Assembly: GCA_023145615.1 (NCBI GenBank)
Contig: JAGLDK010000005.1
Span: 1-63,039, forward strand
Direction of reading: 5' to 3'
Length of the DNA: 63,039 nucleotides
Source of the DNA: Ichthyobacteriaceae bacterium
GTDB taxonomy: Bacteria; Bacteroidota; Bacteroidia; Flavobacteriales; JADGDT01
The notes below the pieces were generated by a model that worked only from the letters and a program-made list of their open reading frames with translations, ran no database searches and had not been told where the DNA came from. Made by a program: the position numbers and the translations under genes. Below, piece after piece: positions 4,037 to 36,277 of the stretch (position 1 is its first letter; the number at the start of each line of letters is the position of its first letter).

Positions 4037-4043
4037 ACTTTTT

Positions 4044-5715: not shown

Positions 5716-5791
5716 TTATTAAGTAATAAAATAATTTATTTAAAATTGATAGTGTTCGCTCGTTCACTTTTAATTTGAATTAAAGCTTATA

Positions 5792-5841: not shown

Positions 5842-5865
5842 ATAAAACAACAAACAATTTGTAAT

Positions 5866-6612: not shown

Positions 6613-8078
6613 TGGAACCTACACAAGCTAAACCGCAAACAAAATTTAACACAAAATCTGAAACGAAACCTAAAGCAAATCTTAAAACAAAAAAGATAAT
6701 TAAACAACAAACACAAACACAAACACACGCACAGTTAGCCGAAGGGTTTTTATCGAATCAATTAAAGGCAAGTTGGTTTAATAAAAGTATTTGGTATCAG
6801 CGTGATAAAAGAGATGTGGCAACCAAAAAACTCAACGAGTGGGAAACACTTAGAGAGTTAGCATCGGATATAAAAGCACATACTTTATCGAAATTAGATG
6901 AGTATTTAATTGAGTTTGAAGAAAAGGCAACAGCCAACGGAATAAATATACATTGGGCTTCTGATGATAAGGAACACAACGAAATTGCAACCAATTTATT
7001 GAAAAAACACAATGCCAAAAAGGTTGTAAAAAGTAAATCGATGCTTTCGGAAGAGTGCGAACTGAATCATCATTTAGAAAATAATGGTATTGAAATTATA
7101 GAATCGGATTTAGGAGAAAGGATATTGCAATTTTCTGGAGAAAAACCAAGTCATATTGTAATGCCAGCTATTCATAAAACCAAAGAAGAGATTGGAGAGT
7201 TATTTGAGGAAAAGTTAAATACCAAAAAAAGTAACGATCCTGTTTATTTAACTCAAGCGGCACGATTACATTTAAGAGAAAAGTTTATAAATGCCGATGC
7301 ATCAATGAGCGGTGTAAATTTTGCGGTTGCCGAAACCGGTAGTTTTGTTCTTTGTACAAACGAAGGAAATGCCGATTTGGGTTTAACTGCAAACTCTAAA
7401 TTACACATTGCATCAATGGGAATTGAAAAGATAATTCCGAAGCAAGAGCATTTAGGGGTTTTTGTTAGAATGCTTGCTCGTAATGCAACTGGGCAACCAA
7501 TAACTACATATACAAGTCATTTTACAAAGCCAAATAAAGGTTCGGAAATACATATAATTATTGTTGATAATAACCGAACAAAATTGTTGGCAGAAGAGAA
7601 GTTTAACTCTTCGTTAAAATGCATACGTTGTGCGGCTTGTATGAATACTTGTCCGGTGTTTAAAAATAGTGGAGGACACTCTTATAATTTTGTTATTCCA
7701 GGACCTATTGGTGCAATTTTAGCACCAGCCCACGATATAAAAAAGTACGAAGATATGCCATTTGCATCTACGCTTTGCGGATCGTGTAGCAATGTTTGTC
7801 CGGTTAAAATAAATATACACGAACAGTTGTACGATTGGCGTCAGGAAATTACCCAACGCAAAAGTTCGTTTACCATAAAAAGTATAATGATGAAAGGTGG
7901 TGCTTTTGTACTAAGTCATACTTGGATGTATCGATTGTTTGGTAAAATAGGAGGTTTTTTTGTTCATAATTTCCGAAAGATTTCGACAATGGCAACACCA
8001 TGGGGAAAAGGCAGAGAGTTGCCCGATGTTCCGAAAGAAAGCTTTAAGGATTGGTGGGATAATAATGCTAAGAAGTAG
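6612..8078 (+). CDS. lutB: Lactate utilisation protein B (4Fe-4S, LUD domain)
   Basis: 488 aa with two ferredoxin motifs, 'CIRCAACMNTCPV' and 'CGSCSNVCPV'. The start overlaps the lutA stop as TAATG. There is an unusual K/T/Q-rich N-terminal extension of about 40 aa. Confidence 0.8.
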   Translation: MEPTQAKPQTKFNTKSETKPKANLKTKKIIKQQTQTQTHAQLAEGFLSNQLKASWFNKSIWYQRDKRDVATKKLNEWETLRELASDIKAHTLSKLDEYLIEFEEKATANGINIHWASDDKEHNEIATNLLKKHNAKKVVKSKSMLSEECELNHHLENNGIEIIESDLGERILQFSGEKPSHIVMPAIHKTKEEIGELFEEKLNTKKSNDPVYLTQAARLHLREKFINADASMSGVNFAVAETGSFVLCTNEGNADLGLTANSKLHIASMGIEKIIPKQEHLGVFVRMLARNATGQPITTYTSHFTKPNKGSEIHIIIVDNNRTKLLAEEKFNSSLKCIRCAACMNTCPVFKNSGGHSYNFVIPGPIGAILAPAHDIKKYEDMPFASTLCGSCSNVCPVKINIHEQLYDWRQEITQRKSSFTIKSIMMKGGAFVLSHTWMYRLFGKIGGFFVHNFRKISTMATPWGKGRELPDVPKESFKDWWDNNAKK

Positions 8079-8135
8079 CATTTTAATTAGTTACAAATTA
8101 GTAATTAGTTATTTTGAAATTAATATTTACAGGTT

Positions 8136-8720
8136 ATGACAACTAGAGAAAAAATACTGAATAGAATAAAAAAAGGTGTAGCACCAAATGTTGATTTGCC
8201 AGATATGAGCATTGCCGAAAGTTGGATAACTCCAATTAACCACCATGATTTAAAGCTTGTTTTAGAAAGTGTTGGGGGCGATTTGCAATATGTTGATTCG
8301 GTTGAAGAATTGAACTATAAGTTAGGCGATATGTTTCCTGAGAGCTTAAATATTTACTCAAATGTAAAGGGTGTAGATTCTAATTTTAGTATAAAAAATA
8401 AAACGGCAATTGAACTTGCAAATATTGGAGTAGCGGTGCTTAATGGCGATTTTATTGTTGAAGAAAATGGAGCAGTTTTTATATCGGATAAAAATATGGG
8501 GTTAGATTCAATACCCACTATTACTGAATATTTGGTAATGGTTATTCCGAAAAATAATATTGTTAAAACAATGCATCAGGCTTACAAACAGTTTAATTTA
8601 AGAGAGCTTAGATATGGTACATTTATTTCTGGTCCATCTAAAACAGCCGATATAGAATCGACTTTGGTATTTGGAGCACATGGAGCCAAAAATTTAACTG
8701 TATTTATGGTTAACGAGTAG
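8136..8720 (+). CDS. lutC: Lactate utilisation protein C (LUD/YkgG family)
   Basis: 194 aa. It is the third gene of the lutABC triplet and has the expected size. Confidence 0.65.
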   Translation: MTTREKILNRIKKGVAPNVDLPDMSIAESWITPINHHDLKLVLESVGGDLQYVDSVEELNYKLGDMFPESLNIYSNVKGVDSNFSIKNKTAIELANIGVAVLNGDFIVEENGAVFISDKNMGLDSIPTITEYLVMVIPKNNIVKTMHQAYKQFNLRELRYGTFISGPSKTADIESTLVFGAHGAKNLTVFMVNE

Positions 8721-8889
8721 TAAAGTAAGTAAAACTCAATGTTTTTTTTGAGCAAAAAGTGACATAGAAATGCCAATTTGTGTATTGCCATTAAGTGTAT
8801 ATAAATTCATATTTGTATAAATATTATTACGAAACAAAATTTAATAATTGCAGAACTACGCAATTTTACCATAAAAAACATAATATATA

Positions 8890-10164
8890 ATGAATGTAAT
8901 TAAGCAAGCATACGATTTGGCAAAAACTGAGTATGCAAAATTAGGAGTTGATACTGATGCAGTAATCAAAAAAATGGCTGATGTAAATGTAAGTTTACAT
9001 TGCTGGCAAACCGACGATGTTGGAGGTTTTGAAACTCCTGATGCTGAGCTTGGAGGTGGAGGAATTCAGGTTACCGGAAATTATCCTGGTAAAGCAAATT
9101 CAATAGAGGAAATGCGTGCCGATTTAGATAAATCAATGTCGTTAATTCCGGGTAAACAGCGTTTGAACTTACATGCAATTTACGGAGAGTTTCAAGGCTC
9201 GTTTGTTGATAGAGATGAGGTTGATGTTGAGCATTTTCAGGGTTGGATTGATTGGGCTAAAGAAAGAGAAATTGGTTTAGATTTTAATGCTTCTTGTTTT
9301 TCTCATCCTAAATCTAACGATGGTTTTACATTGTCGAGCAAGAATGAAGAAATACGTTTGTTTTGGGTTGAACACGTAAAGCAGTGTAGAAAAATTTCGG
9401 CAGAAATGGGTAAGCAGTTAGGTACTGCTTGTGTGCATAATATTTGGATTCCAGACGGGTCGAAAGATACTCCGGTTGATAGATCAGGGCATAGAAAGCT
9501 TTTGAAGAAATCGTTAGACGAAATTTTTGCAGTAGAATATCCAAAAGAACATATTAAAGATGCTGTTGAAAGTAAATTATTCGGAATAGGATCGGAATCG
9601 ATGGTAGTAGGTTCTCATGATTTTTACATGGGGTATGCTGTTAAAAACGAGAAATTAATTTGTTTAGATAATGGGCATTTCCATCCAACAGAGCAGGTTG
9701 GAGATAAAATATCATCTACACTAGAGTTTGTTGATGAGGTTTTGTTACACGTTACTCGTGGGGTTAGATGGGATAGTGATCATGTTGTTACTTTAAACGA
9801 TGATGTTACTATGATAGCTCAGGAAGTTGTACGTGCAAATGTTTTAGATAGAGTTAATATTGGACTTGACTTTTTTGATGCTAGTTTAAACAGAGTAGGG
9901 GCTTATGTAGTTGGAACTCGTGCAACACAAAAAGCATTTTTAATAGCTTTGTTAGAGCCAACAAAACTTATTTTAAAGTTTGAGGAAGATGCTAAGTATT
10001 TTGAAAGATTAGCAATGTTAGAAGAGATGAAAACAATGCCTTTTGGAGCAGTTTGGAATTACTATTGTGAGCAAGAAGGAGTGCCTGCAAACGGTGCTTA
10101 TATTACAGATGTACAGCAGTATGAAAAAGAAGTGCTTTTAGAAAGATCTATGGTTGAAGCATAA
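8890..10164 (+). CDS. rhaA: L-rhamnose isomerase
   Basis: 424 aa. 'VSLHCWQTDDVGGFE', 'NLHAIY' and 'DNGHFHPTE' are typical of RhaA-type isomerases. Confidence 0.8.
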   Translation: MNVIKQAYDLAKTEYAKLGVDTDAVIKKMADVNVSLHCWQTDDVGGFETPDAELGGGGIQVTGNYPGKANSIEEMRADLDKSMSLIPGKQRLNLHAIYGEFQGSFVDRDEVDVEHFQGWIDWAKEREIGLDFNASCFSHPKSNDGFTLSSKNEEIRLFWVEHVKQCRKISAEMGKQLGTACVHNIWIPDGSKDTPVDRSGHRKLLKKSLDEIFAVEYPKEHIKDAVESKLFGIGSESMVVGSHDFYMGYAVKNEKLICLDNGHFHPTEQVGDKISSTLEFVDEVLLHVTRGVRWDSDHVVTLNDDVTMIAQEVVRANVLDRVNIGLDFFDASLNRVGAYVVGTRATQKAFLIALLEPTKLILKFEEDAKYFERLAMLEEMKTMPFGAVWNYYCEQEGVPANGAYITDVQQYEKEVLLERSMVEA

Positions 10165-10187
10165 TAATTAAGTTGTTTTTTTATAAT

Positions 10188-10236
10188 AAAAAAGGGTAGA
10201 TAGTGAATGTATATATTCACTATCTACCCTTTTTTT
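10188..10236. terminator. Bidirectional terminator between convergent rhaA and engB
   Basis: A 15-bp perfect stem, GGGTAGATAGTGAAT / ATTCACTATCTACCC, flanked by an A-run and a T-run. Confidence 0.8.
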
Positions 10237-10254
10237 ATATTATTAAATAGAAGT

Positions 10255-10878
10255 TTATTTTGCTTTTCCAACAAAGTGTTCTTGATACTCAGTGTTGTAT
10301 TTTTCAATAAATTCTGATATTTCTTCTTTACCTTTTTTGCTTTCGGCAGATGTAATAAAAATCTCAGGAAGTACATCCCACTCTTGAGTAAGAGTATTTT
10401 TATACTTCATAATATTTGCATTAAGTTGCCCTAGTTTAAGCTTGTCGGATTTTGTAAACACAATACTAAACGGAATACCTTTTTCGCCAAGCCATCTCAT
10501 AAACTCTAAGTCTATTTTTTGAGCATCGTGTCTCGAGTCGATTAGTACAAATAAATTAACTAAGTTTTTTCTGTTAGTAATATATTCGGTAATTATTTTA
10601 CCAAAACTTCTTCTTAACGACTTAGAAACCTGAGCATATCCATAACCAGGTAAATCAACTAAAAACCAATGATTATCAATTAAGAAATGATTTATCAACT
10701 GAGTTTTTCCAGGCTTACCAGAAGTTTTAGCTAATTTTTTGTTATTAGTCAGCATGTTAATTAACGATGATTTACCAACATTAGATCTGCCAATAAATGC
10801 GTATTCAAGTCTGTTTTCTGTTGGACATTTATTCCAATCAGTGTTACTTATAACAAAAGATGAGCTATGTATTTCCAT
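10255..10878 (-). CDS. engB: Ribosome-biogenesis GTPase EngB/YihA/YsxC
   Basis: 207 aa with G1 '[12 protein letters not shown]', G3 'DLPGYG' and G4 'TKSDK'. Confidence 0.85.
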
Positions 10879-10879
10879 T

Positions 10880-11644
10880 TTATTTAAATGTTTTATTCAT
10901 CCAAGCATCTAAAATTCTATTGAATTCTTCGGGACGTTCTTGCATAGCAGAATGTCCACATTTTTCTACCCAATGTAATTCGGAATTAGGCATAAGTTTA
11001 TCAAATTCTTTAGCTACTTCTGGAGGAGTTACTGTATCGCTGTCTCCCCAAATTAAACAAGTAGGAAGATTCATTTTAGTGATGTCTTTAGCCATATTAT
11101 GTCTGATTGCACTTTTTGCAATAGACAATATTCTGATGGCTTTGTTACGGTCGTTAACAGTGTCGTATATTTCGTCAACAAGCTCTTTAGTAGCCATTTT
11201 CGGATCGTAAAATACTTCTTCTGTTTTGGTTTTGATGTAGTCGTAGTCGCCTCTTTTAGGATAAGTATCGCCCATTGAATTTTCGTATAAACCAGAACTT
11301 CCGGTTAATACCATTCCTCTAATTTTTTCAGGGTGATTTTTAGCAAACAACAATGCAATGTGTCCGCCTAGTGAGTTTCCTACAATAACTACGTTTTCAA
11401 GATTAAGGTAATCAATTAAATCATTAACATGATTTGTAAGATTCTTAACGTTGGTTTTTAGTAAAGGTAAGTTGTATATTGGTAATTCTGGAGCTATTAC
11501 TCTGTAGCCATCTTTAGAAAGATTTTCTATTACGGCATCGAAGTTACTTAAGCCTCCCATTAATCCATGTAATAGAATTATAGGTTGTCCTTCTCCTTTG
11601 TCGATGAATTTAAAATTTTCTTCTTTTTTCTTTTTGAAAAACAT
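10880..11644 (-). CDS. Alpha/beta-fold hydrolase
   Basis: 254 aa with 'LLHGLMGG' and the nucleophile elbow 'GNSLGG'. It lies 1 nt upstream of engB on the same strand. Confidence 0.7.
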
Positions 11645-24089: not shown

Positions 24090-24782
24090 TTAGCCATTTT
24101 TATAAGCCACCATTAATTTGTTTTTATCTAAAATACAGATTCTATCTTTTTTAAGTTCTATAACCTTTTCCTCGTTAAATTCTCTCAAAACTCTACCTAC
24201 ACTCATTACTGACATGTTAGAGAATTCGGCTAAATCTTTACGAGTTATAAACGACATAATTTCGTTGCTATCGAAAACATCGGTTGATAGAATTAACAAT
24301 GACCAAGCAATACGTCCGGTAAGTTGTTTCGACGAAGAATTAGCCATGTTGTTAAAATTACTAACACCTTTTTTATTGATGTTTTTTATTGTTTCGGCAG
24401 CAAACTTACTATTTTTATTTATCAGTTTTTCAAACAAGCTATTATCGAAACTGCAAACAATACAATCAGTTAATGCCTCTAGTGTGTGTTGCATTATGGT
24501 GTTTACAAAAAGCCCGTCAAGTCCTATTAAATTACATTTTTTTTCTATTGAAACTAATGTTCGGGTGCTAGTAAATTCTTTGTAGAATTTAACATAACCT
24601 TTCTTTAAAAATAAGATGTTTGTGTTTGCCGATCCTTGCTTAGCAAGTACTTCACCTTTCTTATAATTAACTATAATTTTGGTTTTTTCTAGTTCCTCTA
24701 AGTCCTCACTTGTAAGTACATCAAAGCACTTTGACCTACCCTTGCATTTTATGTCAATATACTCATTGTCTCTAAACGTCAT
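24090..24782 (-). CDS. Crp/Fnr-family transcriptional regulator
   Basis: 230 aa with a cNMP-binding-like beta-roll at the N-terminus and a C-terminal HTH 'RKDLAEFSNMSVMSVGRVLREF'. It has five Cys, including the N-terminal 'CKGRSKC'. It is divergent from the Mbx-like operon. Confidence 0.75.
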   Translation of the reverse strand: MTFRDNEYIDIKCKGRSKCFDVLTSEDLEELEKTKIIVNYKKGEVLAKQGSANTNILFLKKGYVKFYKEFTSTRTLVSIEKKCNLIGLDGLFVNTIMQHTLEALTDCIVCSFDNSLFEKLINKNSKFAAETIKNINKKGVSNFNNMANSSSKQLTGRIAWSLLILSTDVFDSNEIMSFITRKDLAEFSNMSVMSVGRVLREFNEEKVIELKKDRICILDKNKLMVAYKNG

Positions 24783-24993: not shown

Positions 24994-25001
24994 TAAATTT
25001 G
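24994..25001 (+). promoter_or_regulatory. -7 box TAAATTTG for the Mbx-like operon
   Basis: An exact TAnnTTTG match 40 nt upstream of the ATG at 25041. Confidence 0.45.
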
Positions 25002-25040
25002 CGAACAAGTATTGTAAAAATCACAATTATTATTAATCAC

Positions 25041-25529
25041 ATGAAGAATAATGCACTAATGTTTTTGACTTTGATGTCAGTTTGGGTGTTGCTTAACGCA
25101 TCATTAGACCCAACGCTATTGGCTATCGGAGCAGGTGTTAGTTTGCTTATATCTTTTGCTTTTTGCTCAAAATGCGATGTAATAAGTGGTATAAACTTAA
25201 GTCCCAAGGCTATAGCTTATTCATTTATGTTCGTTTTTGTGTTTATTGGCGAGTTGATAAAAGCAAACATTAGCATCTCAAAGAGAGTTTTAGCGCCTTC
25301 ACTACCTATTAATCCAGGTATTGTACAGGTAAAAACTAAATTGAAGTCGAAAGTTGGAAGAATGGTATTAGCAAATGCCATAACTCTTACGCCAGGTACA
25401 TTTACATTGGATATTAAAGGCGAAGACCTTTTTATTCATTGGGTAGATGTAAAATCAACAGATGTTGATGGAGCGACAAAAGAGATAGTATCAACGTTTG
25501 AAAAGTATTTGGAGGTAATGTATGGTTAG
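25041..25529 (+). CDS. MrpE/MnhE-like membrane subunit (Mbx subunit A equivalent)
   Basis: It carries the 'LANAITLTPGTFTLD' MnhE signature. The ORF-track start at 24999 is a TTG inside a TAAATTTG -7 box, and the first ATG is at 25041. Confidence 0.8.
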   Translation: MKNNALMFLTLMSVWVLLNASLDPTLLAIGAGVSLLISFAFCSKCDVISGINLSPKAIAYSFMFVFVFIGELIKANISISKRVLAPSLPINPGIVQVKTKLKSKVGRMVLANAITLTPGTFTLDIKGEDLFIHWVDVKSTDVDGATKEIVSTFEKYLEVMYG

Positions 25530-25782
25530 TTCATTTATTTATTTAGCTGTAGCGATTAGTTTAATCAGCGTTTTGATCGTCTTAGTAAGATTTGCTAAGG
25601 GACCAGAAAAAGTAGATCGCATTGTTGCTTTTGATGTTATTTCAATTATTGGAGTTTCATTAATATTATTAATAGCAACGTTGATGAAGAGAGTTATTTA
25701 CATTGATGTAGCAATAGTTTATGCTATTCTAGGATTTATCGGTGTAGTTGTTGTTTCACGATTCATTAAAAAAGGACTGTAA
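25522..25782 (+). CDS. MrpF/PhaF-like membrane subunit (Mbx B equivalent)
   Basis: 86 aa with 'RFAKGPEKVDRIVAFDVISI'. It overlaps the upstream gene by 8 nt. Confidence 0.8.
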   Translation: MVSSFIYLAVAISLISVLIVLVRFAKGPEKVDRIVAFDVISIIGVSLILLIATLMKRVIYIDVAIVYAILGFIGVVVVSRFIKKGL

Positions 25783-26144
25783 TGGGAGATTTGTTAGAAA
25801 TTATTGGAGGTGTATTTCTGGTATTAGGTAGTATTACTATGCTGTTAGCAGCAATTGGAATGTATCGTATGCCTGATTTTTATAACCGTATCCAGGTGGC
25901 TACAAAAGCTTCAACATTGGGTTTATTGCAAGTGGCTTTAGGAGTTGGATTAATTATGCCAGGATGGGCACCAAAATTGGTTGTTCTTTTTGTGTTTATA
26001 TTATTCACAAACCCTATTTCTTCTCATTTAGTAGCTCGTGCTGCTTACTTTACAAAAGTACCAATGAGTAAGGATACTAAAATTGACAAACTAAAAGAGT
26101 CAATTAGCAAAGCACATTTGAAAACTGTAAAAACTAAAGCTTAA
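25782..26144 (+). CDS. MrpG/PhaG-like membrane subunit (Mbx C equivalent)
   Basis: 120 aa with 'MYRMPDFYNRIQVATKASTLG'. It has a TAATG stop/start overlap. Confidence 0.8.
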   Translation: MGDLLEIIGGVFLVLGSITMLLAAIGMYRMPDFYNRIQVATKASTLGLLQVALGVGLIMPGWAPKLVVLFVFILFTNPISSHLVARAAYFTKVPMSKDTKIDKLKESISKAHLKTVKTKA

Positions 26145-26149
26145 GAAAG

Positions 26150-26392
26150 ATGTTAACAGTATTAGCAGCAATATTAGGAATAGCAGCTGTAGTAGGAGCA
26201 TACTACGCTATTCACAATGAAAAATTGACCGCAGCTATAATTGCATCAGGAATAGTTGGTATGGTGTCGTCAATATTATTTTTATTATTAGCAGCACCAG
26301 ATGTTGCAATGACAGAAGCAAGTATTGGTAGTGCATTAACTACTGCTATCTTTTTCTTCACTTTAAACAAAATAAGACAAACAAATGGATAA
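26150..26392 (+). CDS. MbhD/DUF4040-like small membrane subunit (Mbx D equivalent)
   Basis: 80 aa with two to three TM segments and 'AAPDVAMTEASIGSALTT', which resembles the MnhB N-terminal part. Confidence 0.7.
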   Translation: MLTVLAAILGIAAVVGAYYAIHNEKLTAAIIASGIVGMVSSILFLLLAAPDVAMTEASIGSALTTAIFFFTLNKIRQTNG

Positions 26393-27089
26393 GAAATTTA
26401 TGGTAGCGCTGCTTGTAGCAGCTATGGCAGTTATTCTATTTCCTTTGTTTCAATCATTTGAAGGAGGAACGCAATTAAGCGAATTAGGACAATATTACAC
26501 GCAAAATGGAGTAAGCGATACAGGAGCAACCAACTTGGTAGCATCTGTAGTTGTTACTTACAGAGGGTTAGATACTCTTGGTGAGGTAACTATTTTATTC
26601 CTTGCAGCATCTATTATCTCATTCTTTTTGAGTGTAAGTAAAGATGATAGAATTGAAAACAGAACAGTTATGTCTGTAACCGAAATTTTGAGTACCGCAT
26701 CTCAAACTCTTGTGCCAATTATTGTATTGGTAGGAGCTTATATTTTGGTTAACGGTCATTTAACTCCAGGTGGAGGTTTCCAGGGTGGTGCTATTATTGC
26801 ATCGGGTACCTTACTTATGTTCTTAGCAAATCCAAATCACAAATTAAACCACACAATTATTCATGTTATTGAATCTACTTCAGGTATTGCATTCGTAGCT
26901 ATTGGTGTTATTGGTGTTTTAATGATGGACGGCGGATTTTTAAGTAACAAGTTGTTCGATCTTGGTACTCCGGGTGAGGTTATCTCAGCAGGAGCTATGC
27001 CATTAATCAACATTTTCTTGGGACTTAAAGTAGGAACAGAGTTATCTAACGTTCTTGGAATATTTGTAGAATCACAAAACGAGAAATAA
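26385..27089 (+). CDS. MnhB/MrpB-domain membrane subunit (Mbx F equivalent)
   Basis: 234 aa with 'VVTYRGLDTLGEVTILF' and 'GHLTPGGGFQGGA'. It overlaps the upstream gene by 8 nt. Confidence 0.8.
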   Translation: MDKKFMVALLVAAMAVILFPLFQSFEGGTQLSELGQYYTQNGVSDTGATNLVASVVVTYRGLDTLGEVTILFLAASIISFFLSVSKDDRIENRTVMSVTEILSTASQTLVPIIVLVGAYILVNGHLTPGGGFQGGAIIASGTLLMFLANPNHKLNHTIIHVIESTSGIAFVAIGVIGVLMMDGGFLSNKLFDLGTPGEVISAGAMPLINIFLGLKVGTELSNVLGIFVESQNEK

Positions 27090-27090
27090 G

Positions 27091-27450
27091 ATGGATCAGT
27101 ATTTAGGACAAGTAGTGATGGCAATAGGATTTATTCTTGCAATTTTAGGGTTGTATGGCTTATTGTCTCAAAAAAACATGATAAAGATGATTCTTGGTTT
27201 CTCAATATTTACTACTGGTGTAAATATTATTATGGTTGCCATAGGATATGTAAAGGGAGGTACAGCACCTATTTTAGATGCTGAAGGAAATGCAGTTGCA
27301 AAATTTGTAGATCCAGTACCACAGGCTTTGGTATTAACATCAATCGTTATTGGATTAGGTGTTACAGCTATGATGTTGGCTTACGTTATGAAGTTGTATC
27401 AGGATAAAAAGAGTTTGAACATAAATGACTATAAAGATTTAAAATGGTAG
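27091..27450 (+). CDS. MrpC/NuoK-like membrane subunit (Mbx G equivalent)
   Basis: 119 aa with 'DPVPQALVLTSIVIGLGVTAMML'. Confidence 0.8.
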   Translation: MDQYLGQVVMAIGFILAILGLYGLLSQKNMIKMILGFSIFTTGVNIIMVAIGYVKGGTAPILDAEGNAVAKFVDPVPQALVLTSIVIGLGVTAMMLAYVMKLYQDKKSLNINDYKDLKW

Positions 27451-30400
27451 GACCAATTTATATTATAGCACTTGCTCTCGGACTTGCGTTTTTCCTTGGG
27501 TTTTTTGGAAAGTCGGCTAAGACTCTTTCAGTTTACCTAATGTTAGCAGGACTTGCTGCCATGACATGTATCTCTGGTACGTGGCTTAGCGCATTTATCG
27601 ACGGAAGTGTTTCGACACAGGAAATTTATACGGCTGGTTTTAAACCTCCGTATTCTATTAATTTAAGAATGGGTCTTGAGGAGGCTGCGTTTACGTTTAT
27701 TATTAACCTAATCGGACTTCTTGGAGGAACATACTTATTTCAAACACTTAAAAAAGCAGGTAATGCCGCAATGTCGGTATTTATCATACTTATTATGAGT
27801 TTGAATGTTATTGTAATGACACGTGATCTTTTCAACCTTTTCGTATTCGTTGAGATTGGAAGTATCGCTACTGCTGGTTTAATACTTTTAGACAAAGAGT
27901 CGAAAGCATTACAAGCCGGTTTGAAATACATGATTGCTACAGGAGTAATTTCTGGTTTATTATTAATCGGAATTATATTTGCTTATAGCTTTGTAGGTAA
28001 TTTAAATATTGATGCTATTATTGGTGCTAACCTTGCAGGTACAACTGCTGGTATGGTTGCTGCTTTTTTAATAGTAGTTGTTCTTGTACTTGAGTTAAAA
28101 CCTTTCCCAGCAAACGGATGGGGACTTGATGTTTACGAAGCTGCAAACCCTGGAGTTGGTGCATTAGTATCGGCTGCAATCGGAACTGCTAGTTTATTCG
28201 TACTTCACAAAGTTCTACCAATGGCTGGAGAATCTTTTTACCCTTACATTGTAGCGGTAGGAGTTATTACTTTTGTAGGTTCGAACTTAGTAGGTACTCA
28301 ACAAAAAAATGCAAACCGTTTGTTAGGATATTCTTCTATCGGACAACTTGGATTGGTTGTTGCAGTTATCGGACTAGAGCCTGTATTAGGAACTAGTTTT
28401 AAATTCATCGCATTTGCTTTAATAATCAATCACGTATTGGCTAAAGCAGGTTTGTTCTGGATTTCAGGAATTATTAGAAAAGCTAATATTTCAGAATGGT
28501 CGGTATTGCGTACAAAACCAGCATTACTTATTTCATTCTTGATTTTCATATTTGCTTTAATCGGATTCCCTCCATTCCCTTCTTTCTTCGGAAAATATCA
28601 GTTAATCATGAATTTGATTTCTTCTGATAACATTGGTACTGCTGCATTTATCCTTATCGGATCTTTTGCCGAAGGTATTTACATGTTCCGTTGGGTAGGC
28701 GATGCGTTGAAAAACGAAGTTGCTGAAGATGCTACTGAATCTCTTGATTGTGGAAAACTAAACAAGGTACTTCCTGTATTATTGATGGCTGTAGCTGTTG
28801 TTGCTGCCGGATATTTATCAATACCTTTTGTTGATGGAGCTTATTCTACATACTTTATTCCACTTGCATTTATTATGTTTATTGGATTAATTGATAGTTT
28901 CCTTCCTGCTGTTGTAAAGAACGTTGTTTCTATTGCAGGTATGGCATACTTCACTTACGTTATGTATCCAATTATTGAGGGTGATTTAATGCGTTCTATT
29001 TTCTTCGGAATATTTATGATTGGGGGTATTCTTACTCTTATTCCTGGATTTGCTAAGAAAGGTAAGCGCGAAGGTTTCTATCCTGCTGCATTATTAATGT
29101 ATGCTGGTTTAGCAACTATTATTACTGCTGATAACACTTTCGGATTTTTCTTCGGATGGGAATTAATGACTGCTGGTTCTTACTTCCTTATCATTCGTGG
29201 TAAACGTTCAAAAGCTCACGCATATTCATACATGTTGTTCTCTGTTGCCGGAGCTTACTTAATCCTTTTCGGATTCGGTTTTGCTTATCAAGCAATTGGT
29301 TCATCGTTGTTAGAAGGATTAGGAGAGATTAAATTGTTGCCTACATTGGCTTACACTGCATTGGCTATTGGTTTCATGACAAAAACGGCATCATTAGGTC
29401 TTCATATATGGTTGCCAGGTGCACACGGTGAAGCTGAGTCTGACGTATCTCCAATGGTATCGGCAGTATTGCTTAAAGCCGGAGTATTTGGTTTAATGTT
29501 GTTGTTCCTTAATATGGGAGACAATGGTGAAACTATTTTATACGTACTAGGTTGGGTTGGAGCATTTACTGCTTTAATGGGTAACCTTTCTGCAACTTTC
29601 CAGGAAGATGCAAAACGTATGTTGGCTTACTCTTCAATAGGGCAATTAGGATATATCCTTTTCGCTATTTCAATGATGACTACTTTAGGATGGTTAGCAG
29701 GTTTTACTTATGTGTTAAACCACTTTATGTTTAAATCTATTCTGTTTATGGTAGTTGGAGGAATTGTTGTAGCAACAGGTACTCACGATTTATACCGTAT
29801 GGGTGGACTTATCAAAAAAATGCCTTTAGCATTTATAGCTGTTATGGTTGCTATGATTACTATGGCTGGTCTTCCACCACTTTCAGGATTTGCAGGTAAA
29901 TGGTTGTTCTACAACGCTGTAATTCTTAAAGGATGGTACATTCAAGGAGTTATAGTATTCTTTGCAGGTACAATTGCATTTATGTATGCATACAAAATGC
30001 TTCACTCAATTTTCTTTGGTCAATTAAAAGATAACCACCGAAACTTAAAAGAGTTAAGTCCTGCAATATTAATTCCTGCTTATATTCTTATTGCAGGTAT
30101 TATGTACTTCTCAGTATTCCCACAAGACGTTCTACAACCTATAAACGAACTATTAGTTAGTTTAAATCTTGGAGATACACTTACATGGGCTGCCGATGGT
30201 AATGCAACTACAGTATTAAGTAACTGGAATGGTAATGCTGTTATGATAATTATTGTAACAACATTTGCTTTAGTATTGCTTTATACTATGCTAATTACTG
30301 GTAAAACTAAAAAACTTGAGCAGTTTAACATTGCTTATTCTGCCGAGCGTCCTTTCCGTCCTGAAACAACACATTATTCACATAATATGTTTGCAGGATT

Positions 30401-30581
30401 AAATAAGGCTATTGGATTTTTAGTAGCTCCTGGAATTACAAGTTTCTGGAATAATGTAAGTACTATGGTAATGGATTTTGCTGGTATGGTGAGAAGAATT
30501 TACAGTGGTAATGGACAGGTTTATGCTGGTCAGATCATTGTTTATATCATAGTTTTCTATTTTATAGCATTAGGTAAATAA
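27444..30581 (+). CDS. Fused double antiporter-like subunit (two NuoL/M/N-MrpD modules; Mbx H + H' equivalent)
   Basis: 1045 aa. Module 1 has 'LFVFVEIGS' (TM5 Glu) and 'LKYMIATG'. Module 2 has 'FFGWELMTAGSYF' and 'MTKTASLGLHIWLPGAHGEAESDVSPMVSAVLLKAG'. Confidence 0.85.
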   Translation: MVGPIYIIALALGLAFFLGFFGKSAKTLSVYLMLAGLAAMTCISGTWLSAFIDGSVSTQEIYTAGFKPPYSINLRMGLEEAAFTFIINLIGLLGGTYLFQTLKKAGNAAMSVFIILIMSLNVIVMTRDLFNLFVFVEIGSIATAGLILLDKESKALQAGLKYMIATGVISGLLLIGIIFAYSFVGNLNIDAIIGANLAGTTAGMVAAFLIVVVLVLELKPFPANGWGLDVYEAANPGVGALVSAAIGTASLFVLHKVLPMAGESFYPYIVAVGVITFVGSNLVGTQQKNANRLLGYSSIGQLGLVVAVIGLEPVLGTSFKFIAFALIINHVLAKAGLFWISGIIRKANISEWSVLRTKPALLISFLIFIFALIGFPPFPSFFGKYQLIMNLISSDNIGTAAFILIGSFAEGIYMFRWVGDALKNEVAEDATESLDCGKLNKVLPVLLMAVAVVAAGYLSIPFVDGAYSTYFIPLAFIMFIGLIDSFLPAVVKNVVSIAGMAYFTYVMYPIIEGDLMRSIFFGIFMIGGILTLIPGFAKKGKREGFYPAALLMYAGLATIITADNTFGFFFGWELMTAGSYFLIIRGKRSKAHAYSYMLFSVAGAYLILFGFGFAYQAIGSSLLEGLGEIKLLPTLAYTALAIGFMTKTASLGLHIWLPGAHGEAESDVSPMVSAVLLKAGVFGLMLLFLNMGDNGETILYVLGWVGAFTALMGNLSATFQEDAKRMLAYSSIGQLGYILFAISMMTTLGWLAGFTYVLNHFMFKSILFMVVGGIVVATGTHDLYRMGGLIKKMPLAFIAVMVAMITMAGLPPLSGFAGKWLFYNAVILKGWYIQGVIVFFAGTIAFMYAYKMLHSIFFGQLKDNHRNLKELSPAILIPAYILIAGIMYFSVFPQDVLQPINELLVSLNLGDTLTWAADGNATTVLSNWNGNAVMIIIVTTFALVLLYTMLITGKTKKLEQFNIAYSAERPFRPETTHYSHNMFAGLNKAIGFLVAPGITSFWNNVSTMVMDFAGMVRRIYSGNGQVYAGQIIVYIIVFYFIALGK

Positions 30582-30591
30582 TAACTATTTA

Positions 30592-30641
30592 ATCAATTGC
30601 TATTAGTTATAAATATTGGTTTGTAACTAATAGCAATTGAT
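30592..30641 (+). promoter_or_regulatory. 18-bp perfect hairpin in the H/H'-to-M spacer of the Mbx-like operon
   Basis: ATCAATTGCTATTAGTTA-N14-TAACTAATAGCAATTGAT, with no T-run after it. Confidence 0.5.
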
Positions 30642-30663
30642 ATTTAGTTTGATAATTATAATT

Positions 30664-31581
30664 ATGGATTATAGTATAACAAAATTTTTATGGTCATTGC
30701 TTGGGCTATTCATTATCCTTAACTGGGGAATGCTTATGTCGTCAACAATGCGTAGAGTAGGAGCAAGACTTGCTGGTAGAATTGGAGTACCAATGTATCA
30801 ACCTTGGATTGATCTTGCTAAATTAATGGCTCTTAAGACTTGGTTGTCTCATGGAGTTATGTACTACATAGGACCTGTATTTCGTCTTGTAGGAGGTGTA
30901 GGTATGTTCCTTTTTATGCCGATAATTTTCGGTTCTGAAATTTGGAGTAACTATTCTTTTTCGGGAGATTTAATCTTATTGCTTTATTTCCAATCATTCG
31001 GAATGTTAGGTATGGCAATGGGTGCATCTGATAGTTCATCGCCACACGCCTCAATAGGTATTTCTCGTGGTTTAGCTCAGTTTGCAGCAGTAGAGGTTCC
31101 TATGACTTTAGCAGTTATTGCAATTGCTATTCAACACCAAACGTTTTCGTTTAATTCAATTATGGAAGCTCAACAAGGTGGAGTATTAAATTGGACTATT
31201 TTTACTAACCCATTAGCATCTATTGCTGGTATGTTAGCAATGTTAGGAGCAATGAGCCACTCGCCATTTAACCTTGTAAAAGCACCAAACGAAATTCCAA
31301 TAGGACCACCAACTGAATATCACTCATCATTTTTGAGTGTTTTACGTACAAACAGTGCTATTATTCACGTAGTAGAAGCTGCTTTGTTCATGAACTTATT
31401 CTTCGGTGGAGCTGATACTTGGTTAATGTACATTGTTAAAACTTTCTTCGTTTACTTTATTTCGGTATTTGTAGGTATGGTTTTCCCTCGTATGAAAGTT
31501 GAAGATTCGGTACGTTGGTTCCTTAAATGGCCAACAGCAGTTGGAATTATTGCAGTATTAGTAGCTGCATATTGGAAGTAA
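30664..31581 (+). CDS. NuoH/MbhM-like membrane subunit (Mbx M equivalent)
   Basis: It has 'GISRGLAQFAAVEVPM' and 'SPFNLVKAPNEIPIGPPTEYHS', as in NuoH/HyfC. The ORF-track TTG start at 30637 lies inside a hairpin arm, and the first ATG is at 30664. Confidence 0.8.
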   Translation: MDYSITKFLWSLLGLFIILNWGMLMSSTMRRVGARLAGRIGVPMYQPWIDLAKLMALKTWLSHGVMYYIGPVFRLVGGVGMFLFMPIIFGSEIWSNYSFSGDLILLLYFQSFGMLGMAMGASDSSSPHASIGISRGLAQFAAVEVPMTLAVIAIAIQHQTFSFNSIMEAQQGGVLNWTIFTNPLASIAGMLAMLGAMSHSPFNLVKAPNEIPIGPPTEYHSSFLSVLRTNSAIIHVVEAALFMNLFFGGADTWLMYIVKTFFVYFISVFVGMVFPRMKVEDSVRWFLKWPTAVGIIAVLVAAYWK

Positions 31582-31813
31582 TTTTTAATTGCCTTTTGCA
31601 AATTAAAAACGTTATAGGCTTTAAGCTTTAATTCGAATGCTTTATTAGCATCGTTAAGGCTTAATGCTTTAGTTGTAAATAAAAATGTTGGTTTGTAATA
31701 ATTATTTGATTTTCAAATAATTGCACATCATTTTTGCATTGGTAGTATAATTTGTACTACTGTATAAAGCATTATAGCGTATAGCTTTTTTTGCTAAAGC
31801 AAAAAAAAAGAAA

Positions 31814-32476
31814 ATGGAAGAGAAAAAAGATAAGTTTTTAGCACCTGAAAACGAAGTTAGACAGGTGTCTGCTCCTGACGGATCTATTATTGAAGTTGAT
31901 CCGTTAAAGGATTACTTCAGTCAAGAGAAGCCAGAGCCATATAAAGTAGGTTCAGGGCCTGTTGAGAATTTCCTTAACTGGGCACGTGCTGAGAGTTTAT
32001 GGGTATTAGGATTTGGAACTGGATGTGGAAGTATTGAAATTCCACCATTGGTAACACCTCGTTTCGATATGTACCGTTTTGGTGTGCAAATGAGAGCTAC
32101 TCCACGTCAATCAAACGTATTTATTATTTCAGGATACCTTGCCATAAAAACTCTTAAAAGAGCTATTCGTGCTTACGAGCAAATGCCTAGCCCTAAATAT
32201 ATAGTTGCACTTGGTAGTTGTACAATTAATGGAGGTATGTATTACGATTCATACAATACCATTAATCGTTTAGATCAATATTTGCCAGTTGATGCTTATA
32301 TAGCTGGATGTATGCCACGTCCGGAGGCTTTATTAGCTGGTTTTGCTGAGTTGAAAAAACTTATTAAAGCTGGTAAAGGTCACAAGGCAAACGAGTATGT
32401 TGAAAATCTTGAATGGTACAAAACAAACCAAAAGAAGATTATCAAGGATTGGAATATGCCTGATTACAACTGGTAA
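31814..32476 (+). CDS. NuoB/MbhJ-like [4Fe-4S] subunit with only three cysteines (Mbx J equivalent)
   Basis: 220 aa with 'GFGTGCGSIEI', 'LGSCTINGG' and 'IAGCMPRPEAL'. These are the only three Cys in the protein. Confidence 0.85.
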   Translation: MEEKKDKFLAPENEVRQVSAPDGSIIEVDPLKDYFSQEKPEPYKVGSGPVENFLNWARAESLWVLGFGTGCGSIEIPPLVTPRFDMYRFGVQMRATPRQSNVFIISGYLAIKTLKRAIRAYEQMPSPKYIVALGSCTINGGMYYDSYNTINRLDQYLPVDAYIAGCMPRPEALLAGFAELKKLIKAGKGHKANEYVENLEWYKTNQKKIIKDWNMPDYNW

Positions 32477-32591
32477 TATTGAGTTGAAGCGTTTATTGTT
32501 GTAAAATTTAATTTATCAGCAAAACAATTATAGTTATGTTGATAAATGATTAAATCATTCAACGATTAAACAATTAAACATTGAAGAAAAA

Positions 32592-33170
32592 ATGCAAAAA
32601 GGAATAAATAATTTGATTGAAAAATTCGGTGCCTCTGATTTAGTTGAGAGAAGATCGGGTTTGTCTTTTATTACTGTTGATCAAACTAAAGCTGTTGCCG
32701 CTATCACACATCTTAAGGATATTGATGGTTATACTGTTTTATCTTTTATTACAGCAGCAGATTGGATTGAAGATGGAAAGATGCAATTAACTTATATGTT
32801 GAATAATCCTGCTGAAGTTGCAGAGATTGCTATTCGTGTAATGTTAGAGCGTAAAAAAGAAGCTGGAGAATCAATGGAGACAATTCATCACCTTTGGCCA
32901 AATGCTAAAAAATGGCAACAGGAGTTGAAAGAAATGTACGGTGTTGATTTCCCAACAAGCCCAGGTGTTAACGATTCTTTCATTCTTGAAGGATGGGATG
33001 ATATGCCACCTAACCGTCGCGATTTCGATACTAAGCAATATGCAGAGGACACTTTCTTCCCTCGTGGAGGTCGTGTTACTCACGATCCTGCTACTTACAT
33101 GCGCGAACAGCTTGATCCAAAAGATCCTCAGTACTATACTAAGAAGAAGAAAAAAGACATTAATAGTTAA
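32592..33170 (+). CDS. NuoC/MbhK-like 30-kDa subunit (Mbx K equivalent)
   Basis: 192 aa with 'HHLWPNAKKWQQELKEMYGVDF', which corresponds to the NuoC 'W..A.W.ERE..DMFGI' region. Confidence 0.75.
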   Translation: MQKGINNLIEKFGASDLVERRSGLSFITVDQTKAVAAITHLKDIDGYTVLSFITAADWIEDGKMQLTYMLNNPAEVAEIAIRVMLERKKEAGESMETIHHLWPNAKKWQQELKEMYGVDFPTSPGVNDSFILEGWDDMPPNRRDFDTKQYAEDTFFPRGGRVTHDPATYMREQLDPKDPQYYTKKKKKDINS

Positions 33171-33180
33171 TTTTTGAGAG

Positions 33181-34374
33181 ATGGGAATTAGTAAATTATT
33201 TACGATGAATGAAGACAGAAGTCTTTATCCTGAACATGATGAAAATGGGAAACCTATCATCGACCTTGAGTCTCATAAGTTTTTAAAACTATGGCAAGGA
33301 CCTCAACATCCTGGTATTACTGGTAACATGTCGTTAGAATTGACAGTAAGTGGAGATGAAATTGTAGAATCTAAAACTCACGTAGGTTACCTACACCGTG
33401 GATTTGAGAAGTTACTTGAACGTAGATTGTTTGTGCAATGTATGCCAACATCTATCCGTTTGTGTGTTGCCGAACCAGATCCAAATGAGTACATAGTATC
33501 AACAGCTGTTGAGGAGCTTGGAGGAATTGAAATTCCTGATAATGCTAAATGGTTGAGAATGCTTTCGTTAGAAATGGCTCGTTTACAAGTTTTGTTACGT
33601 GGTGTTCCTGGTCAGGCTGGTACTTTTGCACTTGGTTTAGGATACCAGTGGGGTAACTACCTTCGTGATTTAATTCTTGATAGTTTTGAAGAATTAACAG
33701 GTGGGCGTGTTTATCATATGTACATTATTCCTGGTGGAGTTCGTGGTAATTTACCTGAAGGCTTTAAAGGGCGTATGTTAGAAAAACTTAAGCTAATTGA
33801 TGAGTTTGTTGTAAAAATAGACAAGTTGATTTTTCAAAACGTTGTTTTCGAAAGCAGAGCCAAAGGATTAGGTCATATACCTAAAGAGTGGGTTGATAAA
33901 TATGGAGTTTACGGACCTGCAGCTCGTGCGTCAGGTGTTATGCGCGATGTGCGTAAAACTAACCCTTACTTAAACTACGATCAATTAGATTTCGAACCTC
34001 ATGTAACTACAGAGGGAGATGTTTATGCTCGTTCGGTTGTTAGATACAATGATCTTCAAATGACTGTTGACATGATTCGTCAGATTTTAGATAAGATGCC
34101 TGATGGTGGAGATATTAGAGCGCAAACTCCAAACGTTTTACACTGGAAAATTCCTAAAGGAGAAACTTATGTAAAGTGTGAAAGTTCTCGTGGTGAGTAT
34201 GGTATGTATTTTGTGACTGACGGTAGCGATAAGCCTCGTAGAGCTCACTTAAAAGGACCTTCTTATACTCACGCAAATGCACTTTTAGATAAATTGCTTA
34301 TTAATGCTAACATAGCAGATACAGCGGCAATTATGGTTTCTTTAGCAACTTGTCCTCCAGAAATAGAGAGGTAA
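33181..34374 (+). CDS. NuoD/MbhL/MbsL-like catalytic-core subunit lacking a complete NiFe site (Mbx L equivalent)
   Basis: 397 aa with 'GPQHPGITGNMSL' and 'GYLHRGFEKL'. The N-terminal motif is 'RLCVAE' and the C-terminal end is 'ATCPPEIER', so both positions read CxxE rather than CxxC. Confidence 0.85.
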   Translation: MGISKLFTMNEDRSLYPEHDENGKPIIDLESHKFLKLWQGPQHPGITGNMSLELTVSGDEIVESKTHVGYLHRGFEKLLERRLFVQCMPTSIRLCVAEPDPNEYIVSTAVEELGGIEIPDNAKWLRMLSLEMARLQVLLRGVPGQAGTFALGLGYQWGNYLRDLILDSFEELTGGRVYHMYIIPGGVRGNLPEGFKGRMLEKLKLIDEFVVKIDKLIFQNVVFESRAKGLGHIPKEWVDKYGVYGPAARASGVMRDVRKTNPYLNYDQLDFEPHVTTEGDVYARSVVRYNDLQMTVDMIRQILDKMPDGGDIRAQTPNVLHWKIPKGETYVKCESSRGEYGMYFVTDGSDKPRRAHLKGPSYTHANALLDKLLINANIADTAAIMVSLATCPPEIER

Positions 34375-34402
34375 ATTGGTTTAACTGTTGAAATGTTGAA
34401 CT

Positions 34403-34426
34403 GTTGAAATACTTCGGTGTTTTAAC
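34403..34426 (+). promoter_or_regulatory. UUCG-tetraloop hairpin in the L-to-N spacer of the Mbx-like operon
   Basis: GTTGAAATAC-TTCG-GTGTTTTAAC gives a 10-bp stem including two G-U pairs. It is preceded by CTGTTGAAAT direct repeats. Confidence 0.45.
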
Positions 34427-34468
34427 AACTAAACAAAAAACTATTAAACGAATAAACATTAAGAAAAA

Positions 34469-36277
34469 ATGAATATAAAAAAGTTATTAACACCGTTTAC
34501 TGCTTGGGGTAATGTAACTAAAGATCCTGTTACAATTAAGGATCCTTTAAACGAGCGTCCAGGTGCAGATAGATATAGAGGTTTTCACCGAAACGATGTA
34601 GAAGCATGTGTTGGTTGTGGTTCTTGTGAAGATATTTGCGAGAATGAAGCAATTGACTTAATGCCTGCAAAGGATACAAAAGATGGTGATTCAGGATTAC
34701 GCCCAATGATTGATTACGGTCGTTGTTGCTGGTGTGCTCTTTGTGTTGATGTTTGTACTACAAACTCACTTACATTGAGTAACGAATATACTTGGATTTC
34801 TACCGACCCTGAAGATTTCAGATATATACCTGGTATAGATAAAAAAGAATGGGATAATAATAACGATAAAGGTTGGAAAAAACCTGAGCCAAACTACGAA
34901 TTCTATCCATTAAAAAGAATTCAACCGTCTCACTTATCGCCCGAAGATCGTTCCGATTCGTTTATCGAAATGATGCATGGTTATTCAAAAGACCAAGCAA
35001 TGCAAGAAGCCGATCGTTGTGTTGAGTGTGGTATTTGTACTGCAACTTGTCCTGCACACATGGGTATTCCTGAGTATATCAAAGCTATTCGTAACGATGA
35101 TTTAGAGGAAGGTTTACGTATACTTTACGATACAAACCCATTACCAGAAATTTGTGGACGTATTTGTACTCATAAATGTGAAACTGTTTGTACAATCGGA
35201 CATAAAGGAGATCCATTATCTATCCGTTGGCTGAAACGTTATATTGCCGATCAAAATCCATCGGAGAGATATAAGAAAATTCTTGAAACTGAAAACCTTG
35301 TATCAAAAGGGAAGAAAGTTGCAATTATTGGTGCTGGTCCTTCTGGATTATCAGCAGCTCACTACTTAGTACAGATGGGTTACGAAGTTAAGATTTTTGA
35401 AAAACTTGCAGCTGCCGGTGGTATGATGCGTTACGGTATTCCATCGTATCGTTTACCTTACGACCAAATAGACAAGGATATTGATTACATCTTAAGTCTT
35501 GGAGTAGATATTCAGTATAACATAAACGTTGGAAACGGTGAAGGAGAAATTTCTCTTGAAACTTTAGGAAATGATTATGATGCTGTATTCTCTGGTACTG
35601 GGTTACACTTAGGACGTTCAACAGGTATTCCTGGTTCTGATAACAAGCACGTTTACGCTTCTCCAGATTTATTACGTTGGATAGTTGAAGGAAAAGAATT
35701 TGAGGTTCCTGAAAACGTAGTAGTTATTGGTGGTGGTAACGTGGCAATGGACATTACTCGTTCAATGGCTCGTTTGCAGATGAAGAAATACGGAAAAGTT
35801 GGTGTTATTACTACTGCTCTTGAAGGAGAAGATAAAATGCCAGCCGATCGTGAAGAAATTGACGAAGGACGTGAAGAAGGATGTATTATCAACCCAGGTT
35901 GGGCTCCAAAATCAGTGGAAATTGATTCGAATGGTGTACCAACAGGATTAAATGTTGTTAAATGTCACTCTTTATTCGATTCTGAAGGACGTTTCAACCC
36001 TCAAACTGATGAAGACAATAAGGAATTCTGGCCTGGTACAATGATTATTGAATCAATTGGACAGGGTATGGATATTTCTTACCTAGATGGAAAATACAAA
36101 GATCAGTTAGAATTCGGACCAAGAGGAAGAGTTCAAACAGATGAGTATTACCAAACAGGTTTACCATGGTTATTCATGGGTGGAGACATCATTAAAGGAC
36201 CAGATGTTATTACAGGTATTGCTACAGGTCATAAAGCTGCAGTAGGTATCGACAGAATGCTAAATCCAGAATTCTAG
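34469..36277 (+). CDS. Fusion of a NuoI/MbhN-like 2x[4Fe-4S] ferredoxin domain with a GltD/SudA/NfnB-type NAD(P)H-dependent FAD oxidoreductase (Mbx N equivalent plus extra module)
   Basis: 602 aa. The N-terminus has 'CVGCGSCEDIC' and 'CCWCALCVDVC'. The middle has 'RCVECGICTATCP...EICGRICTHKCETVC'. Further on come 'VAIIGAGPSGLSAAHYL', 'GGMMRYGIPSYRLP', 'VVVIGGGNVAMD' and 'FMGGDIIKGPDVITGIATGHKAA'. Confidence 0.85.
   Translation: MNIKKLLTPFTAWGNVTKDPVTIKDPLNERPGADRYRGFHRNDVEACVGCGSCEDICENEAIDLMPAKDTKDGDSGLRPMIDYGRCCWCALCVDVCTTNSLTLSNEYTWISTDPEDFRYIPGIDKKEWDNNNDKGWKKPEPNYEFYPLKRIQPSHLSPEDRSDSFIEMMHGYSKDQAMQEADRCVECGICTATCPAHMGIPEYIKAIRNDDLEEGLRILYDTNPLPEICGRICTHKCETVCTIGHKGDPLSIRWLKRYIADQNPSERYKKILETENLVSKGKKVAIIGAGPSGLSAAHYLVQMGYEVKIFEKLAAAGGMMRYGIPSYRLPYDQIDKDIDYILSLGVDIQYNINVGNGEGEISLETLGNDYDAVFSGTGLHLGRSTGIPGSDNKHVYASPDLLRWIVEGKEFEVPENVVVIGGGNVAMDITRSMARLQMKKYGKVGVITTALEGEDKMPADREEIDEGREEGCIINPGWAPKSVEIDSNGVPTGLNVVKCHSLFDSEGRFNPQTDEDNKEFWPGTMIIESIGQGMDISYLDGKYKDQLEFGPRGRVQTDEYYQTGLPWLFMGGDIIKGPDVITGIATGHKAAVGIDRMLNPEF

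Follow-up and report, generated by a model that had tools for sequence, protein, structure and literature searches.

A hydrogenase-derived L subunit with Cys-acid motifs at the former NiFe site, encoded in a bacterial relative of the archaeal MBS/MBX operons

We analysed a 63,039-nucleotide stretch of DNA (hereafter, the window; positions 1 to 63,039 of the forward strand of contig JAGLDK010000005.1, assembly GCA_023145615.1) from an Ichthyobacteriaceae bacterium of the phylum Bacteroidota, and centred the analysis on a gene that resembles both the large subunit of [NiFe] hydrogenases and the NuoD subunit of complex I. The product of this gene is the core (L) subunit, derived from a hydrogenase, of a bacterial complex related to the archaeal membrane-bound sulfur reductase (MBS/MBX), and the CxxE...CxxE arrangement that it carries at the positions of the hydrogenase NiFe ligands is the normal signature of this known family, not new chemistry. 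Among solved structures, the closest relatives of L, of its partner J and of the N-terminal part of its partner N are all chains of a single PDB entry (6U8Y). Taking the evidence jointly, we hold it rather probable that L belongs to a Bacteroidota respiratory complex of MBS/MBX type, with a vestigial NiFe site, in which NAD(P)H drives the reduction of sulfane sulfur at the iron-sulfur cluster of J. The gene and the three segments of its former active-site pocket are the following.

33181..34374, + strand: L subunit (MbsL/NuoD-like, 397 aa; a degenerate [NiFe]-hydrogenase large subunit), assigned by Pfam, PDB search and AlphaFold2/Foldseek.
33298..33330, + strand: beta1-beta2 loop, GPQHPGIT47GNM, with Thr47 at Nqo4 His38 and Gly48 at MbhL Glu21.
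33463..33474 (C95-E98), + strand: motif 1, SIRLC95VAE98PD, at the hydrogenase RxCGxC position, aligned to MbsL C85..E88 and MbhL C68..C71.
34351..34374 (C391-E394 at 34351..34362), + strand: motif 2, LATC391PPE394IER-stop, at the hydrogenase DPCxxCxxR position, aligned to MbsL C385..D388 and MbhL C374..C377.

The L subunit contains the Pfam domain Complex1_49kDa (2e-60), and in a sequence search of the PDB its closest solved relative was Pyrococcus furiosus MbsL (6U8Y chain L; E 3.4e-87, 39% identity), with the complex I 49-kDa/Nqo4 chains at ~1e-55, MbhL at 1e-38 and HycE also present among the matches. The monomer model obtained with AlphaFold2 (AF2; pLDDT 79.7, pTM 0.84) had the same chain as its top Foldseek match (6u8y_L; TM 0.86/0.92, rmsd 2.5 A, 40% identity). 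The fold is shared with NuoD/Nqo4/NDUFS2 (TM ~0.85), and every NCBIfam NuoD equivalog score for L lies under its cut-off. The nearest database homologues are proteins from Bacteroidota metagenome-assembled genomes (MAGs) that are labelled ‘NADH-quinone oxidoreductase subunit D’, an annotation that is probably wrong in function. Judged by its sequence, L is an MBS/MBX-type L subunit, and neither a [NiFe] hydrogenase large subunit nor a quinone-reducing NuoD.

For a residue-level comparison, P. furiosus MbsL (6-391), P. furiosus MbhL (8-380) and Thermus thermophilus Nqo4 (26-309) were rebuilt from the PDB alignments and then aligned four-way with L. The rebuilt references match the numbering of the literature (MbsL with Cys at 85 and 385 only; MbhL with Cys 68, 71, 374 and 377; Nqo4 with H38 and Y87), and the columns of the pocket correspond as listed below (those of C391 and E394 lie beyond the rebuilt Nqo4 segment).

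L C95: MbsL C85, MbhL C68, Nqo4 D86.
L E98: MbsL E88, MbhL C71, Nqo4 H89.
L C391: MbsL C385, MbhL C374.
L E394: MbsL D388, MbhL C377.
L T47: Nqo4 H38; L V96: Nqo4 Y87; L G48: MbhL E21.

A preliminary description of the window, made from the sequence alone, is borne out in most of its particulars by these columns and by the translation, in which Cys occurs at positions 87, 95, 333 and 391 only. CxxE stands at both former NiFe motifs (C95-V-A-E98 and C391-P-P-E394), Thr takes the place of the quinone-liganding His of NuoD, the retained Cys motif occupies the site of the NuoD ‘DY’, and C95/C391 follow the two-Cys pattern of MbsL; the description was also right in stating that MbsL retains C85 and C385 and that complex I (NuoD) retains none of the four NiFe Cys (PMC7684303, PMC8165549). 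Neither four Cys nor the Nqo4 His/Tyr pair could be recovered in L by any register shift of the four-way alignment. Because of these columns, the pocket cannot hold a canonical four-Cys [NiFe] centre and lacks the canonical quinone ligands, as had been proposed, together with the hydrogenase proton-delivery Glu. The MBS paper characterises MbsL in the same terms, i.e. as devoid of the Nqo4 H38/Y87 quinone ligands and of the MbhL E21 proton-reduction residue (PMC7684303).

The description went astray in holding that the symmetric Cys-to-acid replacement could be attributed to no described family. MbsL itself reads RICVPEPD and DNCPPDIDR at the two motifs (C-V-P-E88 and C-P-P-D388), and the pattern of one Cys kept and an acid in place of the second is therefore already MbsL's own (with Asp at the fourth position, where the window L has Glu); Thermotogota mbx-type proteins share it too (CVPE...C[AP]PE). 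We regard CxxE...CxxE as the remnant of an ancestral [NiFe] site, in which Cys 1 and 3 are vestigial and carboxylates stand at ligand positions 2 and 4.

The acid at the fourth position extends well beyond this family. We aligned 150 representatives of 50%-identity clusters with MAFFT (fast settings) and counted the residues in the four ligand columns: 18 representatives were CCCC, all of them true hydrogenases, and Glu or Asp was found at the fourth position in 103 of the 110 non-hydrogenase representatives (94%), NuoD types included (D[AS]V-E over the four columns, with the fourth position in the context GE[VI]DR). E394 is thus a superfamily-wide trait of the non-hydrogenase members. Cys was kept at positions 1 and 3 in 19 representatives, 13 of which had acids at both of the others (CDCD 8, CECD 3, CECE 1, CDCE 1). 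The retention of NiFe Cys 1 and 3 (Thermus positions 86 and 403) had already been noted by Degli Esposti 2015 for the NuoD of mbx, mbx-like, Fpo and some ancestral Nuo operons (PMC4758237).

Related operons were collected by a scan that took one genome per species and yielded 73 loci from about ten phyla. Bacteroidota were represented by Flavobacteriales/Ichthyobacteriaceae, Bacteroidales, Draconibacterium, Prolixibacteraceae and Marinilabiliaceae, and the other loci came from Chlorobiota-labelled MAGs, Calditrichota, Cloacimonadales, Spirochaetales, Fermentibacteraceae, Acidobacteria, WOR-3, TA06, Caldisericales and Thermotogota; the gene order is shared by all loci whose contigs permit the comparison. 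C95, E98, C391 and E394 are all invariant in a 41-sequence alignment (as is T47) and in the 120 closest database homologues of L, hence the motif pattern is not due to chance. Across the 73 loci the four columns read CECE in 55, CECD in 2, AEYE in 4, SEYE in 2 and CEYE in 2, the remainder being partial sequences plus one probable frameshift. The conservation of CxxE/CxxE that the preliminary description had made its touchstone holds for the acids (Glu98 never varies among the loci that include this region, and Glu or Asp stands at position 394 in every locus) and breaks down for the Cys, which are replaced in three lineages.

One locus (L035, 3980-6955) presents L and N as a single open reading frame (ORF) of 992 aa with an altered L C-terminus (…APKEIEK), which is probably a frameshift or an assembly error and not a real fusion.

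The partner subunit J is encoded in the same operon.

31814..32476, + strand: J subunit, NuoB/MbsJ-like, with three Cys only (C71, C136, C166); closest PDB match 6u8y_J, E 3.5e-60.

In P. furiosus MbsJ the corresponding motif reads F-C25-T-G-C28-G, and C25 is too distant to ligate the proximal cluster in the cryo-EM structure; the cluster is held by three Cys, which leaves one Fe free as the proposed catalytic site (PMC7684303, PMC8165549). The window J has lost this non-ligating Cys and reads F-G68-T-G-C71-G, with Gly68 at the MbsJ C25 position (codons checked). The same FGTGCG, three-Cys form of J was found in the window and in 55 further loci (of L001-L062), whereas CTGC is kept in the loci of Thermotogota, WOR-3, TA06 and Caldisericales, as it is (CTGCG) in P. 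furiosus. At the sequence level, the Cys count of J lends independent comparative support to a three-Cys proximal cluster in the family, and is not in itself proof of ligation. The tandem Cys-Cys of cluster N2 of complex I is absent (GTGCG in J versus ACCAVE in NDUFS7).

Electron input is a point of difference from P. furiosus MBS.

34469..36277, + strand: N subunit, 602 aa, an MbsN/NuoI-like protein fused to an NfnB/GltD-type domain (Pfam Fer4_7, Fer4_20, Pyr_redox_2).

Residues 7-116 of N match MbsN (6u8y_N) at 4e-19 and contain two CxxCxxCxxxC [4Fe-4S] motifs, and residues 155-599 match Thermotoga maritima NfnB (4ylf_B) at 1.5e-69, and also P. furiosus NfnI and GltD. This second part, some 450 aa at the C-terminus, retains the two [4Fe-4S] motifs of the NfnB/GltD/SudA family along with its two Rossmann motifs, for FAD and for NAD(P)H, although here it is fused to a ferredoxin domain within a membrane complex, and a gene for the NfnA partner is absent from the operon. 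The NCBIfam model PRK13984 (‘putative oxidoreductase’) spans the full fusion with 836 bits, and the fusion was present in 64 of 65 loci. P. furiosus MbsN (208 aa) takes its electrons from ferredoxin, whereas the window N carries an NAD(P)H flavoprotein domain, and the donor therefore probably differs from the ferredoxin of MBS. As read from its domains, the fusion implies that NAD(P)H would serve as redox partner instead of, or besides, ferredoxin.

Both subunits are encoded, together with L, among 12 co-directional genes at 24999-36277, of which the L gene is number eleven. The remaining members are these.

24999..27450, + strand: six small Mrp-type membrane subunits (MnhE, MrpF, MnhG, MbhD, MbhE/MnhB, NuoK/MnhC-like), by Pfam, in an order shared with related loci.
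27444..30581, + strand: fused double antiporter-like subunit H + H', 1045 aa, with two Proton_antipo_M domains (Pfam/domain search).
30637..31581, + strand: M subunit, NuoH-like membrane anchor of the peripheral arm (Pfam NADHdh, 6e-45).
32592..33170, + strand: K subunit, NuoC-like (Pfam Complex1_30kDa, 3e-17).

The operon thus combines a complete Mrp-type module with NuoH/B/C/D/I-like subunits in the MBS/MBX order (...H H' M J K L N). With P. furiosus MBS it shares the best sequence and fold match, a Cys-acid...Cys-acid L and the succession of Mrp module, H/H', M, J, K, L and N; besides the differences in L, J and N given above, it differs in the fusion of H and H', which are separate in P. 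furiosus, and in its host, an uncultured, low-GC Bacteroidota bacterium as opposed to a hyperthermophilic archaeon. It represents the bacterial ‘mbx-like’ complex that has already been described, with its gltD flavoprotein and vestigial Cys, from Thermotoga and proteobacteria (PMC4758237). The Thermotoga mbx-like/MBX operons (Degli Esposti 2015; Liang et al. 2022) correspond to the Thermotogota loci of our scan (L064-L068), in which N is likewise joined to a gltD-type flavoprotein. Their L shares the Cys-acid pattern, but is only 39-43% identical to the window L and carries the loop GM[HN]GN in place of G[IV]TGN, their J retains four Cys (CTGC), and H and H' are separate genes in Thermotogota as in Acidobacteria loci, whereas they are fused in Bacteroidota-type loci. 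The mbx of T. maritima is a 13-subunit MBS homologue whose mbxA is up 4.4-fold with S0 (PMC9431562). Degli Esposti 2015 was the only study that a literature search for ‘Mbx-like’ returned, and searches on Mbx in Bacteroidetes with complex I and Mrp, and on MbxN/MbsN/NfnB, returned nothing; the Bacteroidota-type clade of the operon is apparently unstudied. What remains of interest are the invariant carboxylates and this clade. The NfnB-type extension of N is already known from Thermotoga-type operons.

Within this otherwise tightly packed operon, two unusually long gaps flank the J gene (31582-31813, 232 nt; 32477-32591, 115 nt).

The data above show to which family L belongs, how its motifs align, how the operon is built and which positions are conserved; for the substrate, the direction of electron flow and ion pumping we infer the following scheme. 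NAD(P)H would reduce the FAD in the NfnB/GltD-type domain of N, and electrons would pass from the FAD over two [4Fe-4S] clusters and then a further two (all in N) to the proximal cluster of J. By analogy with the cryo-EM and mutagenesis work on MBS, catalysis would take place at this proximal [4Fe-4S] cluster, inside the chamber formed by L, J and M; as J offers only three Cys ligands, one Fe would be open to reduce sulfane sulfur (polysulfide). Turnover would then power both antiporter-like units, H and H', together with the Mrp Na+/H+ module.

Several observations weigh against this scheme or qualify it. By an estimate from textbook potentials, the transfer from NAD(P)H to polysulfide yields ~10 kJ per 2e- under standard conditions, which is little for two antiporter-like pumps; with so low a yield, either the substrate or the flow direction could be a different one. 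Within the window, no sulfur-metabolism genes lie beside the operon. The score of L falls slightly under the NCBIfam cut-offs, and the 836 bits of the N fusion are below the PRK13984 equivalog cut-off of 946. Furthermore, the AF2 model of L is poorly defined at all three pocket loops (residues 42-48, 90-97 and 392-397), which face partner subunits.

A second joint reading, which we put forward as a tentative possibility, shifts the emphasis from the vestigial Cys to the carboxylates: E98 and E394 may be the conserved element of the MBS pocket, where they might relay charge or protons, or form a structural clamp together with the invariant Arg93 and Arg397, and the Bacteroidota-type clade may be an MBS driven by NAD(P)H. 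A look through the main text of the MBS structure paper found no discussion of E88, D388, Glu or glutamate. If this reading were true, the carboxylates would connect the coupling loops with sulfane reduction at a proximal cluster held by strictly three Cys, MBS would extend to bacteria that do not belong to the known thermophilic lineages, and the natural Cys-free variants would represent a further step toward the complex-I state.

Among the alternatives to sulfane sulfur reduction, an ion-translocating ferredoxin:NAD(P)+ oxidoreductase (the original Mbx model), in which the GltD/NfnB domain would reduce NAD(P)+ and the L pocket would be non-catalytic, is in our view unlikely. It has in its favour that Degli Esposti 2015 assigns the reduction of NAD(P)+ to the gltD-type subunit encoded in mbx-like operons (PMC4758237), that NfnB-type proteins, the best matches of this domain (4ylf_B, 5jca_L), interact with both NADPH and ferredoxin, and that the reaction would release more free energy than the transfer from NAD(P)H to polysulfide. 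However, a path from ferredoxin to FAD bypasses the J/L/M chamber, which is the coupling site in all solved relatives, and in P. furiosus the Mbx model was superseded by the demonstration of sulfane reduction (PMC7684303, PMC8165549). The strong conservation of the three-Cys J cluster and of the pocket residues further argues that the chamber is in use.

Electrons might instead leave the complex by way of menaquinone, the quinone used by Bacteroidota, in a complex-I-like NAD(P)H:menaquinone oxidoreductase that would have a different input module and bind quinone at an unconventional site. The NAD(P)H-linked input module and the lack of sulfur genes near the operon within the window would accord with such an enzyme, as would the entrance of the MBS chamber, which matches that of complex I in width (PMC7684303). 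Against it, the equivalents of Nqo4 His38 and Tyr87 are Thr and Val, and J is without the tandem Cys-Cys of N2 and has three Cys only. Apart from the acid at the fourth position, the hallmarks of NuoD (Asp-Tyr at motif 1, Val/Ile at the third ligand position, the His38/Tyr87 pair and a tandem-Cys NuoB partner) are all missing here. Considering also that the closest relatives of the complex are MBS and the S0-induced mbx, we judge menaquinone reduction decidedly improbable.

The proposal of the preliminary description that the symmetric Cys/Glu site may define the chemistry of the clade, i.e. that C95, E98, C391 and E394 make up a new Cys2Glu2 site for metal binding or redox chemistry, fares considerably worse. 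Its support lies in the invariance of the four residues in the closest 120 homologues and their occurrence in 55 of the 73 loci, and in the fact that the two carboxylates go undiscussed in the main text of the MBS papers. However, both Cys are replaced (by Ala or Ser, and by Tyr) in Cloacimonadales (loci L042, L048, L051) and in some Bacteroidales (L036, L037, L039), and in Spirochaetales (L043, L049) the first Cys is kept and the other is Tyr. These loci (the L gene lies near 10001-11190 in most of them) have a complete operon, a J with three Cys and a fused N, and on a rough neighbour-joining tree without support values they fall in two separate places. This natural loss of Cys in intact operons agrees with the behaviour of the MbsL C85A/C385A mutant, whose dimethyl trisulfide (DMTS) reductase activity is at the wild-type level (PMC7684303), and a catalytic or metal-binding Cys2Glu2 site is therefore very unlikely; the E394 position, moreover, is Glu or Asp in complex I too.

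That L could be a functional group 4 [NiFe] hydrogenase large subunit is refuted at the sequence level and has next to no probability left: despite its homology to HycE and to MbhL (PDB 6CFW; 30% identity, same motif positions), it has only two of the four ligand Cys, with Glu at the other two and Gly at the site of MbhL Glu21, it reads CVAE/CPPE where all 18 true-hydrogenase representatives are CCCC, and none of the window ORFs that were scanned proved to be a hyp maturation gene.

The comparison thereby assigns an apparently odd active-site motif to an already known family and disposes of a false lead on new Cys/Glu chemistry. It also adds three comparative points to what is understood of the MBS mechanism, namely that the non-ligating Cys of J was lost in a large uncultured, apparently non-thermophilic bacterial clade, that the vestigial Cys of L can vanish naturally, and that electrons are brought in by an NAD(P)H flavoprotein module. 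Taken together, the three points suggest a wide occurrence of MBS-type sulfur (or related) respiration among anoxic-sediment Bacteroidota, Calditrichota, Cloacimonadota and relatives.

Upstream of the operon lies a gene of possible regulatory interest.

24090..24782, - strand: Crp/Fnr-family regulator, divergent from the operon (Pfam cNMP_binding + HTH_Crp_2).

This gene could regulate the operon, sensing redox state or anaerobiosis. The genes that flank the operon have housekeeping functions or serve sugar catabolism, and nothing in them hints at the substrate. Farther away, and unrelated to the operon, a sugar and lactate utilisation cluster at 1293-10164 comprises an FGGY kinase, a class II aldolase, an aldehyde dehydrogenase, LutA/B/C-like proteins and an L-rhamnose isomerase.

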